DNA of 64,000 nucleotides from a virus (taxonomy: Duplodnaviria; Heunggongvirae; Uroviricota; Caudoviricetes). The position numbers and the translations under genes were made by a program. The DNA lies in IMG/VR virus record IMGVR_UViG_3300028583_002208. The stretch is one strand, 5' to 3'. Under the pieces are notes generated by a model. The model saw only the letters and a list, made by a program, of their open reading frames with translations, was not told where the DNA came from and did not search any database. Shown in pieces: positions 20,303 through 63,997 of the stretch (positions within the stretch are counted from its first letter, which is position 1; each line of letters opens with the position of its first letter).

Positions 20303-21312
20303 TTACATGCGGCAACTTTCACAGTCGTCTTCTTCATCTTCTAAAATAGAAGTTGCTGCAACCGTGGCCTTAGTCTCATCTTCTTTGATACCACCTTTAC
20401 TATTCTGATAGTATAAACTTTTAAGCCCCATTTTAGTAGCGTAGAAGTAATCTTTCATCATTACAGTAAGAGGTACTTTTTCACCTTCATACTTACTGTA
20501 GTTTGTGTAAAGGTCACAACTAATACCTTGTCCATGAAACTTTTGGAAGATAGCATAACAATCTATAATATCCTTAGTAGGTACATTATAAGCAAGTTCA
20601 TAACTATTCTTAACTTCTTCCTTCTCAATATCAGGTGCTGCAAAAGTATTCACTGTACTACCAGAACGCTTAACAGTGTAAAATTCACGTATAGGGTATA
20701 AGCTGTTGGTAGTCTCGCTTGCTTGAGAGCTACTTTCAGCAGGAGGAGTTGCCTCTAGTACCGAGTTACGTATACCACCTTGCCTTATGATTCCCTTACG
20801 TAAACTTTCCCAATCAAATTTCAAACCTTGGCTATGTACATCATCTACGTTTTTATTGTACGTGTCAATAGGTAGCCAACCTTCAGGATACTTAGTCCTA
20901 TCTATTAAAGAACAGTTACCCTTTTCTTTTGCTAAACGTAAACTTGCACTGTGTAAGTAGAAGCTGTGCATTTCAGCCAAAGAGTGCATGTAATTCTTAC
21001 CCTCTAAGCTACTATAACTCAAACCTCTTACTGCCATATCATGTGCTAGATTGGTAATACCTATACCTACACTACGTCTACCTTTAGCAGTGTTCTCCAC
21101 TTGAGGGAAAGGATACTCCATCAAATCGATAACATTATCAACTGCTAGAAGAGAATAATAAGCTACATCTTCATATTCTTCTTCTGAAATTCTTCCTGCA
21201 ACTAAACAACTTAGGAAACATAAAGCAATTTCACCTGCCTCAACTCCTTTATTCTTATCATACATATCTACAACGTTTAAATAACCTTTAGTAGGTAAAA
21301 ATATTTCTTGAC
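20303..21312 (-). CDS. nrdA: Class Ia RNR large subunit NrdA, exon 2 (C-terminal half)
   Basis: Upstream of the annotated ATG the frame stays open and reads 'QEIFLPTKGYLNVVDMYDKNKGVEAGEIALCFLS...', aligning with E. coli NrdA 'LEIALPTKPLNDVNDENGEIALCTLS'. It ends with the KSLYYQN and C-terminal CxxC tail. Confidence 0.85.
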
Positions 21313-21566
21313 TATAAGATCCCCTATTTTAATAAGGGTATGGATCATATCATCATCCGTTCTGGATGTCGGGCGCTAATGTGGTTATTAAGTTCTCAAA
21401 CCCCACTGATCTCTGGACGTTCTCTATCCTTAGAGCTTCGCTGCTGATTGCCATCTACTAACTAAAACACACTCGCTTCTCAGCGATAATGCAAAGCCTA
21501 GTTAAGGTTTCCAGTCAATTCACCCAATTATTCAATACGTGTCCCCACGTAAGGCTGCGTCATTTC
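21313..21566 (-). mobile_element. Group I-type self-splicing intron (ORF-less, ~254 nt) in nrdA
   Basis: The exon-1 frame hits TGA 3 nt past the conserved 'SSNL'. Joining ...aatctgt | gtcaagaa... restores 'SSNLCQEIFLPTK' (the NLC-EI radical-site motif). P1 can form between exon 'cugu' and intron 'gcag' with a U-G pair at the junction. R-like 'cagagaucag' and S-like 'gauaugaucc' elements are present. Boundaries are good to +/-1 nt. Confidence 0.7.
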
Positions 21567-22833
21567 ACAGATTGCTACTATAGATTGTATCTTTAAAAGG
21601 AGTATGCAAATTCATTTCATCTAACCAAGTGTGGTATTTACGGCCTGTATCACCACGTTGAGTTAAGAATAGTTTTAATACTTCAAAAGAGTTAACAAAC
21701 CTCTTCTTTCCTTCACTCTTTTCATAAGATTGATAAGCTTTCTTAAACTCGTCATAGCCTTTAAAATGTGCTTCATATAATTCAGGAGAATCATAATAAG
21801 ATACCAACATCCAAGGTTCTTTTCTAGAAGCTTTTTCAGCTAATAGTTTTGTTGCTCCCATCGAATAATCAAGTCCACGTATACGCTTATCTTCTATCGT
21901 GGTAGGATGCTTCAATCGTAACAAGGTTTCTACTTCTGGGTCAAGTACTGTGTAATGTACTGTCGCACCACCACCTCTAACTTCCTGCTTAGTAGACTTA
22001 ACCGCCCCTTGTAAATAACGGTAGTAAGGTATCTTTCCTGTATGTTTATCGGGCTGAGATCTTATAGGGTCTTTAACAGAACGAGTAGTTAAAGTACAAC
22101 CGATACCAGAGGATGCATTAGTAAACTTATAAGCAGCATGTACTAAATTCTCAATAGAGTCTGCAGTATCTTCTGACTTAATTACACAACAGCTAGCAAA
22201 ACCTTTAAAAGAAGTTCTCAAACCTGCTAAGAAAGGTGTTGGCATATTGATCTTCAAGTCGCTTAAATATGTGTATAGCTTCTCAACATCTTCTAATCTA
22301 CGCTCATCAGGTTGTGTTTCCATCACCTTCATTGCAATGCCCATGAAAGCATATTGAGGTGTTTCACAAACTACACCATTTAGCTTCTTCGCATACTTAG
22401 TGCTTATTTGTTTTACTGTAGATAACTTATAATTCAAATCTTTGTCATTATCTAAAACACTATCAAGATAATCTAAGTCAGAGTCATCATAATCCATGTA
22501 CTCCCATACACCAGCAGATGTCATTTTATAATAGAAGTCTGGTAAAGATGGCCTCTCTTCGAAACCCCCGTGTACAGTTTTATACAAAGAACCTAAATAT
22601 AACCTAGCTGCCATATCTAAATGTTCAGGAGTTTTCTTATCAGAGCAAGCGTCAATTAATGCTTGTTGCAACTCTTGTGTTGAACACTTATCTTCTACTT
22701 TACGTAATGCATCAAAAACTAACCCTGACCAACAAATACCTATTGTTGAACCCCACTCTGCCATACGGTTCAATTTGTCAGGAGAAAACTCTACAACATC
22801 ACCATTACTTTTAGTAACATAGTTTATACTCAA
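21567..22833 (-). CDS. nrdA: Class Ia RNR large subunit NrdA, exon 1 (ATP-cone plus N-terminal catalytic half)
   Basis: 'VTKSNGDVVEFSPDKLNR' is an ATP-cone. '...RKYHTWLDEMNLHTPFKDTIYSSNL' aligns to E. coli '...RIYIQNVDHCNTHSPFDPAIAPVRQSNLC'. Confidence 0.85.
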
Positions 22834-57250: not shown

Positions 57251-57327
57251 GGGACATTAGCTCAATTGGACAGAGCAAGGTGTTTCTACCGCCTAGGTTG
57301 CAGATTCGAGTTCTGCATGTCCCACCA
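57251..57327 (+). tRNA. tRNA-Arg (anticodon UCU), CCA encoded
   Basis: Manual cloverleaf: acceptor gggacat/atgtccc, D-arm gctc-aattggaca-gagc, anticodon arm aggtg-ttTCTac-cgcct, T-arm gcaga-ttcgagt-tctgc, discriminator A, then CCA. Confidence 0.8.
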
Positions 57328-57331
57328 CATT

Positions 57332-57406
57332 GCGAGATTAGTTTAATTGGTAAAATAGTAGCCTTCCAAGCTTCAGTCATGGGATCGTAACCCATATCTC
57401 GCTCCA
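57332..57406 (+). tRNA. tRNA-Gly (anticodon UCC), CCA encoded; slightly non-canonical
   Basis: Acceptor gcgagat/atctcgc (7 bp). D-arm gttt/aaat. Anticodon arm gtagc-ctTCCaa-gcttc with one U-U mismatch. T-arm atggg-atcgtaa-cccat. Discriminator U, then CCA. Confidence 0.6.
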
Positions 57407-59047: not shown

Positions 59048-59123
59048 CTTTGTTGGGATGGTGTGGTAGTATTGGGTAAATGATGATAGTTTTTAATAAT
59101 GTTAATTTTATGGGGAGAGGAAT

Positions 59124-59435
59124 ATGAAAGAGTTTAAATTTATGAATGGTTGTGAATTAGAAGCAACAAAAGAAGTGTTTCAACTTTTAGAAGGTAATCC
59201 GTTTTGCCATACATGGGGTATGTATAGAGAAGGTGATTTGGAAAAGGTTTGTATTTGTTTCAAGGATATTTCAGGAGAAGAGTATTTACTGGAATGGTAC
59301 AGCAATCAAGAAGACCTTTTTGAAGTTTATTCTGATTTAACAGATATTGATTTGGGTATGGAGTTTTATGATTATAAACTTGTCAAGGATGTAGTAAATT
59401 ACCTAAACAGTTTACCACACTTTAGAAAGATTTAG
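59124..59435 (+). CDS. hypothetical protein
   Basis: 103 aa. Confidence 0.4.
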   Translation: MKEFKFMNGCELEATKEVFQLLEGNPFCHTWGMYREGDLEKVCICFKDISGEEYLLEWYSNQEDLFEVYSDLTDIDLGMEFYDYKLVKDVVNYLNSLPHFRKI

Positions 59436-59451
59436 TCTTGGAGGAGTAGAT

Positions 59452-60261
59452 ATGATCTGGAATAATATCACCTTTCCTGTCAAAGAAGAGTGGAAAGATA
59501 TCGAAGGTTACGAAGGTATTTATAAAGTTAGTAATTATGGCAGGGTGAAGAGTCTGTCCAGAGATATTCACTACCACAGGAACGGAAAAATGACTTCTAT
59601 CTTTAAGAAAGGAAGGTTACTTAAACCCAAGACAGACAAGGATGGTTATAAAGAGTTATGTATGACTTCCTCTGAAGGTATTAGGAAATACAAGAGAGTG
59701 CACCGTATCGTGGCAGAAGCTTTCTTAGAAGAAACTCACATAGATAACGCTGTGATAGACCACATAGATAATACCAAAGACAATAATATTTGGTACAATC
59801 TGCAATGGATGACTTCTACTCAGAATACTATAAAGTATTACGCAGAAGATTACAGTAAAAGTAGAACTTTAAGTTCCTTAACAAAAGAGGAGTTTGCTAG
59901 GATAGGTGAACTTTACAATAAAGGTTTACTTTACCCTGAGATTATAGATGAAATGGGTTTGACGGTAGAAAGTCCCTCCACTTTATGGGAAGTTCTATGT
60001 GGGAGAAGGTTGTCTAGCGTATCTGGTTTTAAAGAGGGAGATTTTAAAACAAGACCTCACCCTACTACGAAATTAACTGAAGATGATGTAGTACAAATAA
60101 TTAAAGAAAGAATTATAGATAAACAAAAGTTAAAAGTGTTGTCAGAGAAATGGGGTGTAGCTGAGTCCATGATAAGTAGATTTACTAAAGGTACTCGACA
60201 ACCTTCCGCTTATATTAAATTCAAAGAAAGGTATAATTATGACAAAGAAAAAGAAGAGTGA
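59452..60261 (+). CDS. HNH homing endonuclease with NUMOD4-type N-terminal module; free-standing, abutting terL exon 1
   Basis: 'IEGYEGIYKVSNYGRVKS' is NUMOD4. 'HRIVAEAF...IDHIDNTKDNNIWYNLQWMTSTQN' is the HNH core. The C-terminal region is HTH-like. Its 3' end overlaps the terL exon-1 start in another frame. Confidence 0.75.
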   Translation: MIWNNITFPVKEEWKDIEGYEGIYKVSNYGRVKSLSRDIHYHRNGKMTSIFKKGRLLKPKTDKDGYKELCMTSSEGIRKYKRVHRIVAEAFLEETHIDNAVIDHIDNTKDNNIWYNLQWMTSTQNTIKYYAEDYSKSRTLSSLTKEEFARIGELYNKGLLYPEIIDEMGLTVESPSTLWEVLCGRRLSSVSGFKEGDFKTRPHPTTKLTEDDVVQIIKERIIDKQKLKVLSEKWGVAESMISRFTKGTRQPSAYIKFKERYNYDKEKEE

Positions 60262-60346
60262 ACCACTCTTCAAACCCGCCAGTGAGAAGCAAGCTCTTAT
60301 TCTTAAAAGGGCTTCTGACACACAGGTGACTATTATTGGTGGAGCT
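60239..60346 (+). CDS. terL: Large terminase subunit TerL, exon 1 (N-terminus up to the first half of Walker A)
   Basis: ATG at 60239 with a GAAAGG RBS. Translation 'MTKKKKSEPLFKPASEKQALILKRASDTQVTIIGGA' then hits TAA. 'Q..L......Q..IIGGA' is the typical TerL region before the P-loop, and it is missing from the ORF track. Confidence 0.7.
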
Positions 60347-60592
60347 TAAAAATCCAGTGGTTCCACATTAAATAACCCTGCTAATTCGATGAAGGCTAAG
60401 TGTACTACATAAGCTAATATCGAGCCGAATGATTAAATTCATGGGTGTAGAGATCAATCGTGATGAGTGTAACGATGTAGGGGCCAAGTGGCTTCCAAAC
60501 GTAGGGCTATGTTATAACATAGAAGATATGATCCGACAACACAGGAAACTGTGGAAAGAGAGTAACGCCTCTAAAACTGATCCTGAAAAATG
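60347..60592 (+). mobile_element. Group I-type intron A in terL (ORF-less, ~246 nt), splitting the Walker A motif
   Basis: Exon 1 ends ...GGA, exon 2 begins (A)GSGKS. P1 forms between exon 'ggagcu' and intron 'gguucc' with a terminal U-G, and the intron ends in G (60592). R-like 'gagaucaa' and S-like 'aagauaugauccg' elements are present. Confidence 0.65.
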
Positions 60593-60928
60593 GCTGGTTC
60601 AGGAAAAAGTTATCTATTGCAAATGATCCCTTTAATGTTAATAGATGATCCCAATTCGGAAATGGTAATGTTCCGTAGAACTAATCCCCAGATAAAAGGT
60701 GCGGGTGGTATATTTAGCACAGGTTGCGGAATATACAATCAGCTCCCTCCTAATATAAGACCAAAGATTAAAACAGGTGACCTAGAAGTTATATTCCCTA
60801 CCAAAGACGAGAAAGGTAGGCGTAGTTATAATGGTGCCAAGATAAAATATCAACAAGCAGAAAATGTAGAACAAAGTAAACTAAATGCCCAAGGTTTGCA
60901 ATGGACTTTTGTTGGTATAGATGAGGGT
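60593..60928 (+). CDS. terL: TerL exon 2 (ATPase: Walker A second half to Walker B)
   Basis: '(A)GSGKSYLLQMIPLM...' completes the P-loop, and '...LQWTFVGIDEG' is Walker B. The frame then hits TAA at 60929. Confidence 0.8.
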
Positions 60929-61182
60929 TAATTGTAGCCCCTTAATGTAGGAATACATTTAGAAAATCCCGTGAATTCAGGGGAAGCCTCTAGTAGGTAA
61001 TCCTGAGCGAAGCTCGAAAGAGAACGTGCAACGACTATCCTGAAAAGGAGTACACAACAAGCTAATGGTTGTGGAAGCGCGGGACACCTAGAACAGGTGA
61101 TGATATAGTCTGAACTTCTATGGTGACATAGAGCAGCCATAATAGGCGGAAGATGACTTGCAAACATCTTTGAACACAATTG
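60929..61182 (+). mobile_element. Group I intron B in terL (ORF-less, ~254 nt), inserted just after Walker B
   Basis: Canonical group IA-type core: R element 'caacgacuauccug' and S element 'gaugauauagucug' (P7 GACUA/UAGUC). A U-G P1 forms between exon 'gggu' and intron 'gccc'. It ends in G (61182). Joining gives '...VGIDEG|TQFEWSQIEYF...'. Confidence 0.75.
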
Positions 61183-62298
61183 ACACAATTCGAATGGAGT
61201 CAGATAGAATATTTCATGTCTCGACTCAGGTCACAATCAAAACATTTCTCCCGTATGGTTATATCTTGTAACCCGTCACCCTCTCATGAGATTAAGAAGA
61301 TGATCTCATTCTACTTGACAGATGACGGATATCCTGACCCTAAAAAGGACGGTTTAGTTAGGTATTTCATACAAAGAGACGGTGAGTACATATGGGGAGA
61401 AACAAGGGAAGAATTAGGAACAAGGTTTGATATTCCTGAAAAAGATTGGGAAAACTTAATTCTATCTTTCAGCTTCGTGAGCGCAAATATTTATGATAAT
61501 CCTCCGATGATTGAGAGCAACCCAGCTTACCTCGGCTTCTTAGAAGGTTTGAATGAAATTGACAAAGCTCAACTATTACATGGTTGCTGGGCAGAATTTG
61601 CATTCGGAAGTAAATACTTTAAACGTGATTGGATAGATCACGTAGATAAAGTACCTACAGATGGTCTCACTGTTAGGGCATACGATTTCGGAGCATCTGA
61701 AAGAACCATGTCAAACAAGAACCCCGATCCAACAGTAAGTATAAAAATGCATAAAAGTAAAGATGGCTATTATACTTTAATGGGTGATTACCACGAAGAC
61801 TTCTATGACAAAGTGGATGATATTCAAGGGGCAATGTATCTCAGTTCTGGGGAAAGGGATAGAGTAATGTTAAAACAGGCTGCATTTGACGGTTCAGAAG
61901 TTTACCTTGTTGGTCCGCAAGATCCTGCTGCGGCTGGAAAAGCCCTTTGGAATCAACAAGCTAAGTACTTTGCAGAAGAAGGTTATATTTATAAAAAAGA
62001 CCCCATGCCTATAACAAAGAATAAACTTACCAAGTTCTTACCTTTTGCAACAAGTGCAGAGAATGGTTTGATACGTATAGTTAAGTCCACTTTTTCAGAG
62101 AACACTTATAATCATATAATGAAACAGTTGGAAAACTTTGATGGTGAAAGATCAACCAAAACCAAAAAGGATGACTTTGCAGATGCTATAGCTTCGGCTT
62201 ACAACTTCCTATCCAAAGAAAGAGTAATCCGCGCCTACAGCCTCCCAGACACCACTTCTCCAACAGCTTACACCTCTTACCGCAAGTCTATCCGATGA
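61183..62298 (+). CDS. terL: TerL exon 3 (ATPase C-motif plus RNase H-like nuclease domain)
   Basis: 'SRMVISCNPSPSHE' is the TerL coupling motif (ISTP-like). 'RAYDFGAS' and 'KDDFADAIASAYNF' carry the nuclease acidic residues. Confidence 0.8.
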   Translation, partial: TQFEWSQIEYFMSRLRSQSKHFSRMVISCNPSPSHEIKKMISFYLTDDGYPDPKKDGLVRYFIQRDGEYIWGETREELGTRFDIPEKDWENLILSFSFVSANIYDNPPMIESNPAYLGFLEGLNEIDKAQLLHGCWAEFAFGSKYFKRDWIDHVDKVPTDGLTVRAYDFGASERTMSNKNPDPTVSIKMHKSKDGYYTLMGDYHEDFYDKVDDIQGAMYLSSGERDRVMLKQAAFDGSEVYLVGPQDPAAAGKALWNQQAKYFAEEGYIYKKDPMPITKNKLTKFLPFATSAENGLIRIVKSTFSENTYNHIMKQLENFDGERSTKTKKDDFADAIASAYNFLSKERVIRAYSLPDTTSPTAYTSYRKSIR

Positions 62299-62443: not shown

Positions 62444-63997
62444 ATGGCTAATAAGACTAGGCGCAGACGGAAGAAAAATAACTCTTCTGAACGTGCTAAC
62501 ATGGCTGCAACAAATGCCACTCCCCCTAATTCAACTCGTGAACAACGTTCCGCTAATAAGCAATTATCCACTGCAGCAATAGAGTTTGTCAAGCGTCAAA
62601 TTGATATCCTTAAACCTTGGGAACTCAGTCGGACGCAACGACTCACCACTTACCAGCAAATGTTAAACGATGATGCAATAGCTACTTGTTTTTCTGCAAG
62701 AAGTATGGCTGTTGCAAAAGCTCAAGCTAAAGGTAAGTTCAAATATGATGTAAACTCAGAAGAGTCACTTCGCATCAAAGAGTTCCTTGAATATAACATG
62801 GAAAACCTTTTTGGACAAACCCCTTTAGTTGTAGGTATGTGTTCTGCTGCAATGATCCGTGATGGATGGTCACCTTTTGAGATGGTGTTTGAAAATGGTG
62901 ATGCAGAATGGAATGATAAGTGGAAGCTTAAAAAACTTGCTTATATCCATCCTCTCACTTTAGATAAGATCACTCCTTGGACAACTACACCTAATGGAGA
63001 CAGAATAACCTCTTTGAATCAATCGCAATCAGCTTTTGAAGGTGTGGATGGTGTTCGTTCAATAGGGTTCAATGGATTCAAAGGTAATACAGGTGTGCAA
63101 CCTATCTCCTTTAATCGAGTAGCTTATTGCTCATATTCATCGACTCCTACACAACCTGCTGGAATTTCAGTATTTGATTCAGCTTATATCCCTTGGAAAG
63201 AGAAACAACTTTTACAAGATTTAACATTGATTGGTGTTCAAAAGGATATGGCGGGTATGCCTGTTCTTGGTGCTCCAAGTTCATTGTTAGCTGCGGCCTC
63301 TGATAACCCAACGGGACCAGAAGCTAGAATGGTTGAACAATTGAAAGATAACCTTGCCAACTTACATGCTGGTGACCAAAGTTATTGTGTTCTTCCAACA
63401 GATACACATTCTGAAAATGGTGCAGGTGCAGCGCAGTTCAAACTTCAATTCTTAGGGATCGAAGGAAGCGGGAAAAACTTTGATATAATGGAATTAGTTG
63501 AACAACGTAAACGTGCAATATACAACTGTTTCGCATGTCAGAATATGTTATCAGGTGAAAACGGTGGCGGAAGTTACAACCTTTTAGAAGGGCAATCTTC
63601 TATACAAGCACACTTTGTTGAACTAGATACCATGATCATAGATGATATGTGGAATAAGCAAATTTTCCCTAAGTTGATGAAACTTAACAATTGGGATTAT
63701 AAAGCTTCGGACATGCCTAAATGGAAAGCGGGTAATGTTCAGAAGATATCTGCTGATGAAGCGGGTAAGCTTGTTTCACGTACAAAGAGTATTCTACCAG
63801 CGCATCCAGACGTTATAAACTATGTTCTCGATATGATGGATGTAGACTACCGTGTTCCAATTGATACACCTGCGGAAGTGTTAAGAGAAATGCTTTTCGA
63901 TATACAGGATAATCAAGGAGAAGATAATGGTGGTACATCAGGATCTGGGAACAATGCACAGGATAATTCAGATGTTAACAATGAAAATGCGGCATAA
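62444..63997 (+). CDS. Portal protein (by synteny and size)
   Basis: 517 aa, immediately downstream of terL. Basic N-terminus and acidic G/S/N/D-rich C-terminal tail are typical of portals. No decisive motif. Confidence 0.5.
   Translation: MANKTRRRRKKNNSSERANMAATNATPPNSTREQRSANKQLSTAAIEFVKRQIDILKPWELSRTQRLTTYQQMLNDDAIATCFSARSMAVAKAQAKGKFKYDVNSEESLRIKEFLEYNMENLFGQTPLVVGMCSAAMIRDGWSPFEMVFENGDAEWNDKWKLKKLAYIHPLTLDKITPWTTTPNGDRITSLNQSQSAFEGVDGVRSIGFNGFKGNTGVQPISFNRVAYCSYSSTPTQPAGISVFDSAYIPWKEKQLLQDLTLIGVQKDMAGMPVLGAPSSLLAAASDNPTGPEARMVEQLKDNLANLHAGDQSYCVLPTDTHSENGAGAAQFKLQFLGIEGSGKNFDIMELVEQRKRAIYNCFACQNMLSGENGGGSYNLLEGQSSIQAHFVELDTMIIDDMWNKQIFPKLMKLNNWDYKASDMPKWKAGNVQKISADEAGKLVSRTKSILPAHPDVINYVLDMMDVDYRVPIDTPAEVLREMLFDIQDNQGEDNGGTSGSGNNAQDNSDVNNENAA

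Follow-up and report, generated by a model that had tools for sequence, protein, structure and literature searches.

The 64,000-nucleotide stretch of the Caudoviricetes virus recorded in IMG/VR as IMGVR_UViG_3300028583_002208, referred to here in its entirety as the window, very probably carries its large terminase gene (terL) in three exons. These are split by two group I ribozymes of one pre-mRNA, which lack open reading frames (ORFs) and resemble subgroup IA, and splicing would yield a TerL protein of 519 amino acids. The first intron (intron A) bisects the P-loop of the packaging ATPase, with ...IIGGA before it and AGSGKS after it, and the second (intron B) lies close to the Walker B motif. 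This gene structure had been put forward in an original prediction, and the coordinates of the three exons (60239-60346, 60593-60928, and 61183-62298), the bisected P-loop, and the size of both ORF-less spacers (about 250 nucleotides (nt); 246 and 254 nt) are confirmed. Their assignment to group I is supported by a covariance model and, for intron A, also by covariation. The predicted length of the joined product, 520 amino acids, has to be corrected by one residue.

The joined terminase product and its exon junctions

Exon 1 starts with an ATG at 60239, with the Shine-Dalgarno-like AGAAAGG 8 nt upstream, and ends in ...VTIIGGA, immediately followed by an in-frame TAA. Exon 2 opens at 60593 with the codons GCT GGT TCA GGA AAA AGT (AGSGKS), and its frame ends with ...FVGIDEG at 60928, again before a TAA. 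The frame of exon 3 opens at 61183 with ACA CAA TTC (TQF...) and reaches its stop at 62298. Joined in frame, the exons read IIGGAAGSGK across junction A and GIDEGTQFEWSQIEYFMSR across junction B. Ligation restores the Walker A motif GAAGSGKS, between whose residues 2 and 3 intron A is lodged (G-A/A-G-S-G-K-S, the slash marking the insertion point here and in the codon strings below), and the Walker B motif FVGIDE, with intron B one codon past the catalytic glutamate.

Comparison of the joined product with terminase profiles, suggested as a check with the original prediction, gave a single Pfam Terminase_6N match (residues 32-299, E 1.6e-17) that spans both junctions, and a match to Terminase_6C (E 3.5e-9). 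The predicted protein has the make-up of a Terminase_6-family large subunit, with a Walker A/B ATPase and a C-terminal RNase-H-like nuclease in one polypeptide. A sequence search of the PDB with the joined TerL returned nothing at E<1e-3. By blastp, it is 60% identical over 520 columns to the uninterrupted TerL of Vibrio phage RYC, with only two gaps, both away from the junctions. Exon 1 matches residues 12-47 of that protein, and the residues at both junctions (IGGAAGSGKSYLLQ and DEGTQFEW) are identical. A tblastn search found 1217 phage records with a colinear TerL homologue covering at least 80% of the joined protein.

Because the joined TerL is colinear with an uninterrupted TerL, with no gap at either junction, both junctions are fixed at the amino acid level. 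At the nucleotide level, only with 60346/60593 and 60928/61183 does a U precede the 5' splice site and a G the 3' splice site while the reading frame is kept. For intron B, an in-frame stop at 61171-73 makes G61182 the sole in-frame terminal G, thus excluding other choices.

Two protein-level readings of the fragments were also weighed, namely that the three pieces are translated separately to form a split terminase, or that the spacers are inteins; both are extremely improbable. Genes in pieces have a precedent in the Aeh1 NrdA, which is split by mobE, and the last three nucleotides of intron A (AUG) and of intron B (UUG) are in frame with the next exon and could be taken for start codons. 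Nevertheless, no Shine-Dalgarno motif precedes 60590 or 61180, and these starts are not conserved, as homologues have UUG, UCG, or CAA there. Separate translation would, moreover, cut Walker A after two of its eight residues, both spacers appear to be bona fide ribozymes, and the homologous intron of phage ICP1 is spliced at the RNA level (PMC10448857). The in-frame stops and the missing translation signals of the fragments led to rejection of the split-protein reading, and the in-frame UAA codons at 60347-49 and 60929-31 to rejection of the intein reading.

With splicing at the RNA level as the preferred reading, these UAA codons would stop ribosomes at the exon borders, so that unspliced RNA would yield only a 36-amino-acid peptide. 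Since the P-loop is bisected as well, a functional TerL would need both splicing events, and it is reasonable to expect, by analogy with the homologous ICP1 intron that is spliced in vivo, that packaging depends on both.

Structure and conservation of the two introns

The Rfam group I model (RF00028) has a curated gathering score of 50 bits. Searching both segments with it had been proposed as a check: intron B passes clearly, matching the full-length model at 97.1 bits (E 7.9e-24), and intron A falls narrowly short at 48.6 bits (E 2.3e-11 in a local search, 2.6e-9 over the whole window). Run by default at the gathering threshold, an Rfam scan consequently reports intron B and an unrelated intron in nrdA, and misses intron A.

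The structure of intron A was assessed by covariation, counting a hand-built P1-P10 model on an alignment of nine phages (the window, ICP1, 1.161.O, IBT_VpB-34, 10AMN, 1.170.O, Aeromonas PAc, qdvp001, and 1.187.O). In this model, 94.3% of the cells are paired, compared with 34-41% when the partners are slid by 1-3 columns, and compensatory double changes occur in 31 of the 66 pairs; none of 500 shuffles reached the observed values. Pairing reaches 88-100% in the helices P3, P4-P6, P7, P7.1, P7.2, and P8, each of which has 1-5 compensatory pairs. It is complete (100%) in P7.1, P7.2, and P8, which have 3-4 compensatory pairs each (four in each of the first two). The 8 bp P1 has the U60346-G60359 wobble at the 5' splice site, this U-G being invariant in all nine sequences, and it also covaries: in ICP1, the exon strand GGUGGUGCU faces the guide GGUACCAC, an A-U to U-A double change that keeps the pairing. 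P10, formed by the guide CCAGU (60354-58) and the first bases of exon 2, GCUGG (60593-97), is 97.8% paired, with one compensatory pair.

The P7 element of intron A had been described as a variant core with 'gauc'. Its sequence is indeed GAUCA/UGAUC, but homologues carry GAUCA/UGAUC, GACUA/UAGUC, or GACCA/UGGUC, and because the pairing covaries among phages, the variant is no defect. The GTAGGG of the P3 3' strand has a duplicate copy inside P7.2. Homologues of intron A were found in 115 phage records, nearly all of Vibrio phages, and those of ICP1 isolates are 82% identical.

For intron B, the core is supported by the covariance-model alignment together with a minimum free energy (MFE) fold; only three lineages align reliably, and MAFFT misaligns P8. 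The covariance-model alignment places the 5' splice site after U60928, paired with G60937, and P7 is GACUA/UAGUC. The MFE fold recovers P2, P3, P4, P5, P6/6a, P7.1, P7.2, P8, P9, P9a, and P9.2, that is, all but the P7 pseudoknot. All intron B helices are retained with different sequences in intron 1 of Escherichia phage RudolfGeigy, whose differences in P2 and P5 are given below. The U-G pairs in P1, the 3'-terminal G of both introns, and the IA-type core of intron B are thus as originally predicted.

Both introns have a P7.1/P7.2 pair between the P7 5' strand and the P3 3' strand, as in subgroup IA. Introns of this subgroup, with their extra P7.1 and P7.2 helices, are typical of phages. The ORF list gave no plausible internal ORF in either intron. 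Their supposed GC enrichment is marginal, holding against the whole window (0.40 and 0.43 versus 0.36) and not against the exons (0.38-0.43).

An intron-less close relative was sought in IMG/VR, and only two relatives were found (the contigs L015 and L016), each with both introns and, starting at the ATG of terL, 95% identity to the window. All 12 intron differences from these contigs lie in loops or tails, or preserve pairing. Of the eight in intron A, the L5 loop accounts for three and the 3' tail for two; C60484U is compensated by G60491A within P7.2, and through G60482A a G-U pair becomes A-U. In intron B, all four fall at unpaired positions, and the GNRA loop of P9 is kept. The introns diverge by 1.6-3.3%, compared with 7.4% for exon 3. 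These structure-preserving changes provide evidence, at the level of sequence comparison, that the intron RNA structures are under selection.

All the sequence elements for two transesterifications are present in each intron. According to established group I chemistry, each would fold and bind guanosine, whose attack would cleave after the U of the P1 wobble (U60346 in A, U60928 in B); the exons would be ligated at the terminal G (G60592 and G61182, respectively), guided by P10. The spliced mRNA would then encode the 519-amino-acid TerL with both GAAGSGKS and FVGIDE intact.

Several points weigh against this reading. Intron A scores 1.4 bits below the RF00028 gathering score. The P1 of intron B has only 4 exon base pairs, and its P10 is weak, amounting to 3 bp if kept in the canonical register, or to 6 bp (AAUUGU x ACAAUU) if displaced by 2 nt. 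In addition, at 61174-61191, intron B ends in 9 nt (ACACAATTG) that recur at the start of exon 3 (ACACAATTC); both copies can pair with the guide AAUUGU (60930-35), and so could compete for it. The repeat is absent from RudolfGeigy. Finally, some phage group I introns, including members in Bastillevirinae, splice in vivo but not in vitro (PMC11878797), so that strict self-sufficiency of introns A and B is not assured.

The low score of intron A, the short P1 and offset P10 of intron B, and the precedent of introns that splice only in vivo could also mean that one or both introns are decayed or require host factors, with splicing inefficient or regulated, or that terL is a pseudogene in a defective genome. 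This is very unlikely, as every core helix is intact and shows compensatory evolution, and two independent metagenomic relatives (L015 and L016) keep both introns with structure-preserving changes only. Besides, no other copy of terL, an essential gene, was noted in the window. The coordinates of the spliced gene, of the intron helices, and of the adjoining endonuclease gene are collected in Table 1.

Table 1. Positions of terL, its two introns, and the adjoining endonuclease gene in the window
Feature	Position	Strand	Description
Free-standing homing-endonuclease gene	59452-60261	+	269 aa; NUMOD4 and HNH_3 (Pfam E 4e-14 and E 1e-7)
terL exon 1	60239-60346	+	36 codons, MTKKKK...VTIIGGA; Walker A residues 1-2
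Intron A P1 hairpin	60339-60366	+	exon GUGGAGCU (60339-46) x guide GGUUCCAC (60359-66)
Intron A	60347-60592	+	246 nt, ORF-less group I; opens with in-frame UAA (60347-49), last base G60592
Intron A catalytic core	60452-60533	+	P7, P7.1, P7.2, P3 3' strand, P8
Intron A P7	60452-56 x 60529-33	+	GAUCA x UGAUC; covaries among phages
Intron A P7.1	60457-76	+	
Intron A P7.2	60480-95	+	
Intron A P3 3' strand	60501-06	+	
Intron A P8	60507-22	+	
terL exon 2	60593-60928	+	112 codons, AGSGKS...FVGIDEG; from Walker A residue 3 to Walker B (hhhhDE) and the Gly after it
Intron B	60929-61182	+	254 nt, ORF-less group I; opens with in-frame UAA (60929-31), last base G61182
Intron B P1	60925-30 x 60935-40		
Intron B P2	60944-59		
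Intron B P3	60967-73 x 61078-84		
Intron B P4-P6	60977-61027		
Intron B P7	61033-37 x 61106-10		
Intron B P7.1	61038-49		
Intron B P7.2	61053-73		
Intron B P8	61085-99		
Intron B P9	61118-31		
Intron B P9a	61136-47		
Intron B P9.2	61149-71		
terL exon 3	61183-62298	+	371 codons plus stop, TQFEW...RKSIR; remaining ATPase domain and nuclease domain

Known introns and inteins in terL

The closest precedent for intron A is the terL intron of ICP1, whose splicing was demonstrated in vivo by RNA-seq with Magic-BLAST and by RT-PCR (Barth, Dunham & Seed 2023, NAR Genom Bioinform, PMC10448857). It is a homologous ORF-less ribozyme with 82% nucleotide identity to intron A, inserted at the same codon boundary between two Ala codons (GGT GGT GCT/GCT GGC in ICP1, following the pattern GGx GCT/GCT GGx). 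The exons correspond to gp129 and gp128, the first one having about 33 codons compared with 36 in the window, and a free-standing endonuclease gene (tcgB/gp130) overlaps the terL start. ICP1 differs in that its TerL belongs to another lineage (about 29% amino acid identity) and is interrupted by only one intron, and in that its neighbouring endonuclease is of the T5orf172 type, whereas that of the window is an HNH enzyme. RF00028 reports neither the ICP1 terL intron (L005 2500-2761) nor the copy in 1.161.O (L004) at E<1e-3. Members of the intron A subfamily systematically escape detection, and many records label the short exon 1 before them as a hypothetical protein.

The site of intron B is occupied in RudolfGeigy (Vequintavirus, MZ501102), whose terL annotation joins three pieces; the two introns between them are ORF-less and of group I (Rfam 84 and 95.6 bits). 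Its TerL is of the same lineage as that of the window (about 50% amino acid identity). Intron 1 is at the nucleotide position of intron B (GAT GAG GGT/ACA CAA TTC, with GATGAGGGT before and ACACAATTCGAATGG after the intron), and has homologous P1, P9a, P9.2, and 3' tail; it differs from intron B in lacking P2 and in having a large P5 extension. The second intron is not in the P-loop, but at residue ~251, in the I/YDNP region.

A vequintavirus-like IMG/VR contig (L019, 906-1748) has an intron at the intron B site (...CFDEG/) with a 196-amino-acid ORF of the Endonuclease_7 family (Pfam E 2.5e-21); this intron is presumably the mobile counterpart of the ORF-less intron B. The HNH-bearing intron of phiTE was considered as a same-site homologue and rejected, being inserted 6 nt upstream (GAT/GAA GGT), although its 3' domain is related. 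A 14-mer scan of the junction between exon 2 and intron B (GATGAGGGTTAATT) returned 107 stretches, almost all of them chance matches; filtering left the L015/L016 duplicates and two vequintavirus-like contigs.

Vibrio phages 1.187.O (MG592553) and qdvp001 also resemble the window: each has an intron A homologue at the same P-loop site, further group I introns in terL, an endonuclease gene upstream, and a TerL of the same lineage (55% amino acid identity). The three introns of 1.187.O, which score 75, 90, and 82 bits, occupy the P-loop site, residue ~180, and residue ~253. The additional introns of these phages lie at the latter two positions and not at DEG/TQF, and all are unannotated in the records. 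Their P-loop intron (L002 ~1859-1861 in 1.187.O; L014 for qdvp001) ends in ...ACAA/GCTGG. If the exon junction is conserved, its terminal base appears to be A rather than the near-universal G; alternatively, the junction is shifted by one nucleotide, with the loss of one Ala codon.

Other interrupted terL genes are known. At least two interruptions are present in qdvp001, IBT_VpB-34, and 10AMN, and Shewanella phage 1/4 has one at residue ~283. In Bastillevirinae and Twort-like phages, terL is split by two or three group I introns, and splicing of the SIOphi TerL was shown both in vitro and in vivo (PMC11878797). These phages resemble the window in having more than one intron in terL; they have Gram-positive hosts and an unrelated terL family, and most of their introns carry endonuclease ORFs, with a mean length of 802 nt. 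The P-loop and Walker B of TerL are, moreover, classic intein sites (Kelley et al. 2016, PMC5050341). Such inteins, including that of Pseudoalteromonas phage HM1, which shares the backbone of the window, target the same ATPase motifs, but splice at the protein level.

The rarity implied by the original prediction is, therefore, not sustained: the P-loop site is occupied in more than 100 public records of Vibrio and Aeromonas phages, ICP1 included, the intron B site in RudolfGeigy, and multi-intron terL genes are published (PMC11878797). The combination of both sites in one terL was seen only in the window and in L015/L016, and it joins two documented sites. The find is correct but ordinary, since same-site introns are public, one of them validated, and it reveals no new mechanism; of more interest are the turnover of endonuclease genes and the apparent exchange of the terL cassette around the introns. 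Biologically, the find is a further case in which selfish elements converge on the sequences that encode Walker A and Walker B in packaging ATPases. It also has a practical side, as terL is mis-annotated as fragments in this phage and in relatives (J2-1, 1.187.O, qdvp001, IBT_VpB-34, and others). Standard pipelines miss both the 36-codon exon 1 and the sub-threshold intron A, which matters because terL is a common phylogenetic marker.

Neighbouring endonuclease genes and the genomic setting of terL

The last 23 nt of the homing-endonuclease gene overlap the start of terL. Its closest homologue (52% amino acid identity) is directly upstream of terL in Vibrio phage 184E37.1. In L015 and L016, the same slot holds a gene for a 295-amino-acid GIY-YIG protein, in place of which the window has the HNH/NUMOD4 gene and ORF103 (59124-59435, no Pfam match). 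The swapped segment spans 59119-60238 in the window, compared with 245-1113 in L015 and 2132-3000 in L016, with one limit at 59118 and the other precisely at the ATG of terL. The slot, between a conserved upstream ORF and terL, is empty in HM1 and occupied by a GIY-YIG gene in Pseudoalteromonas phage J2-1, with 89% nucleotide identity to that of L015/L016. A slot of such variable content agrees with the view in the literature that places nuclease genes at the borders of exchanged DNA (PMC10448857).

An endonuclease gene adjoining a gene with an ORF-less intron is the layout of collaborative homing. This process reportedly combines a free-standing endonuclease gene with an ORF-less intron (Bonocora & Shub 2009; Zeng et al. 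2009). As an addition to the splicing reading, it is possible, if rather unlikely, that the upstream HNH enzyme cuts intron-less terL at or near the P-loop site, that intron A protects its own genome, and that gene and intron are co-converted into naive phages at co-infection. The endonuclease ORF ends only 85 nt before the 5' splice site of intron A, and wherever a P-loop intron with an identifiable upstream gene was examined, an endonuclease gene overlaps the terL start, whether of the HNH (window), GIY-YIG (L015/L016 and 1.187.O), or T5orf172 type (ICP1 and qdvp001). Collaborative homing was also proposed for ICP1 by Barth et al. (PMC10448857). Nevertheless, in RYC and 184E37.1, an endonuclease gene is upstream of an uninterrupted terL, and IBT_VpB-34 has the intron with no recognisable upstream endonuclease. 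Between the 95%-identical genomes, moreover, the endonuclease gene was swapped while the intron stayed, so that gene and intron turn over independently. The circumstantial evidence is mixed. These near-identical genomes, differing only in the endonuclease gene next to terL, could be used to test both collaborative homing and nuclease-bounded exchange.

The genome around terL has another affinity than the gene itself. Between 37089 and 59093, the identity of the window to J2-1 and HM1, both Qingdaovirus phages of Pseudoalteromonas, is 86-89%. Nucleotide similarity returns at 62224 with J2-1 (~75 nt ahead of the terL stop) and at 62143 with HM1. The TerL proteins of these phages are only 32-35% identical to that of the window, except for the C-terminal ~17 residues, which are identical, whereas the window TerL is RYC-like (60%) and Vequintavirinae-like (50%). 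The body of terL (59094-62223) is, by these sequence affinities, foreign to the Qingdaovirus-like backbone.

The two introns may be seen as selfish elements lodged in the two most conserved ATPase motifs, which, now without endonuclease genes of their own, would move with the terL cassette, and the upstream homing-endonuclease gene may aid its spread. A broader scenario, tentative and on balance doubtful, treats terL with both introns as a mobile cassette. A foreign terL of the RYC/Vequintavirinae type would have replaced the resident Qingdaovirus gene, with exchange boundaries at the junction of the endonuclease gene and the terL start and ~75 nt before the terL stop, and the upstream endonuclease would since have been swapped from GIY-YIG to HNH. 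Neighbouring endonucleases would drive such replacements, and P-loop introns and inteins, including those of J2-1 and HM1, would act as immunity determinants. If true, the group would be a natural system in which the gene of an essential packaging ATPase is replaced as a whole.

Walker A is also the site of invading elements in the resident terL genes of the Qingdaovirus phages. In J2-1, terL (L006 441-3208) is mis-annotated, with the C-terminal exon only. It contains an unannotated group I intron (L006 584-826, 71 bits) inside Walker A, at GGGGG/GKT between x5 and G6, three codons further in than intron A, and a LAGLIDADG ORF (L006 1244-2056) before the Walker B exon. The HM1 TerL is an 876-amino-acid ORF (L009 1944-4574) with a LAGLIDADG intein between the K and T of Walker A. 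The portal gene of HM1 has an insertion of ~1 kb (L009 5739-6798), absent from the window at 63466-63470, with a group I core (Rfam 36 bits) that is 79% identical to the P7-P9 region of intron B.

Elsewhere in the window, a third group I intron (21321-21605, minus strand, Rfam 60.1 bits) splits nrdA, the gene for the large subunit of ribonucleotide reductase, at ...IYSSNL/C, with flanking ORFs at 21565-22833 and 20303-21265 (minus strand). Its P7 is of the GAUCA/UGAUC type, as in intron A. Two adjacent tRNA genes (57251-57324 and 57332-57403), the first detected only in an E-value search, are situated ~3 kb upstream of terL.

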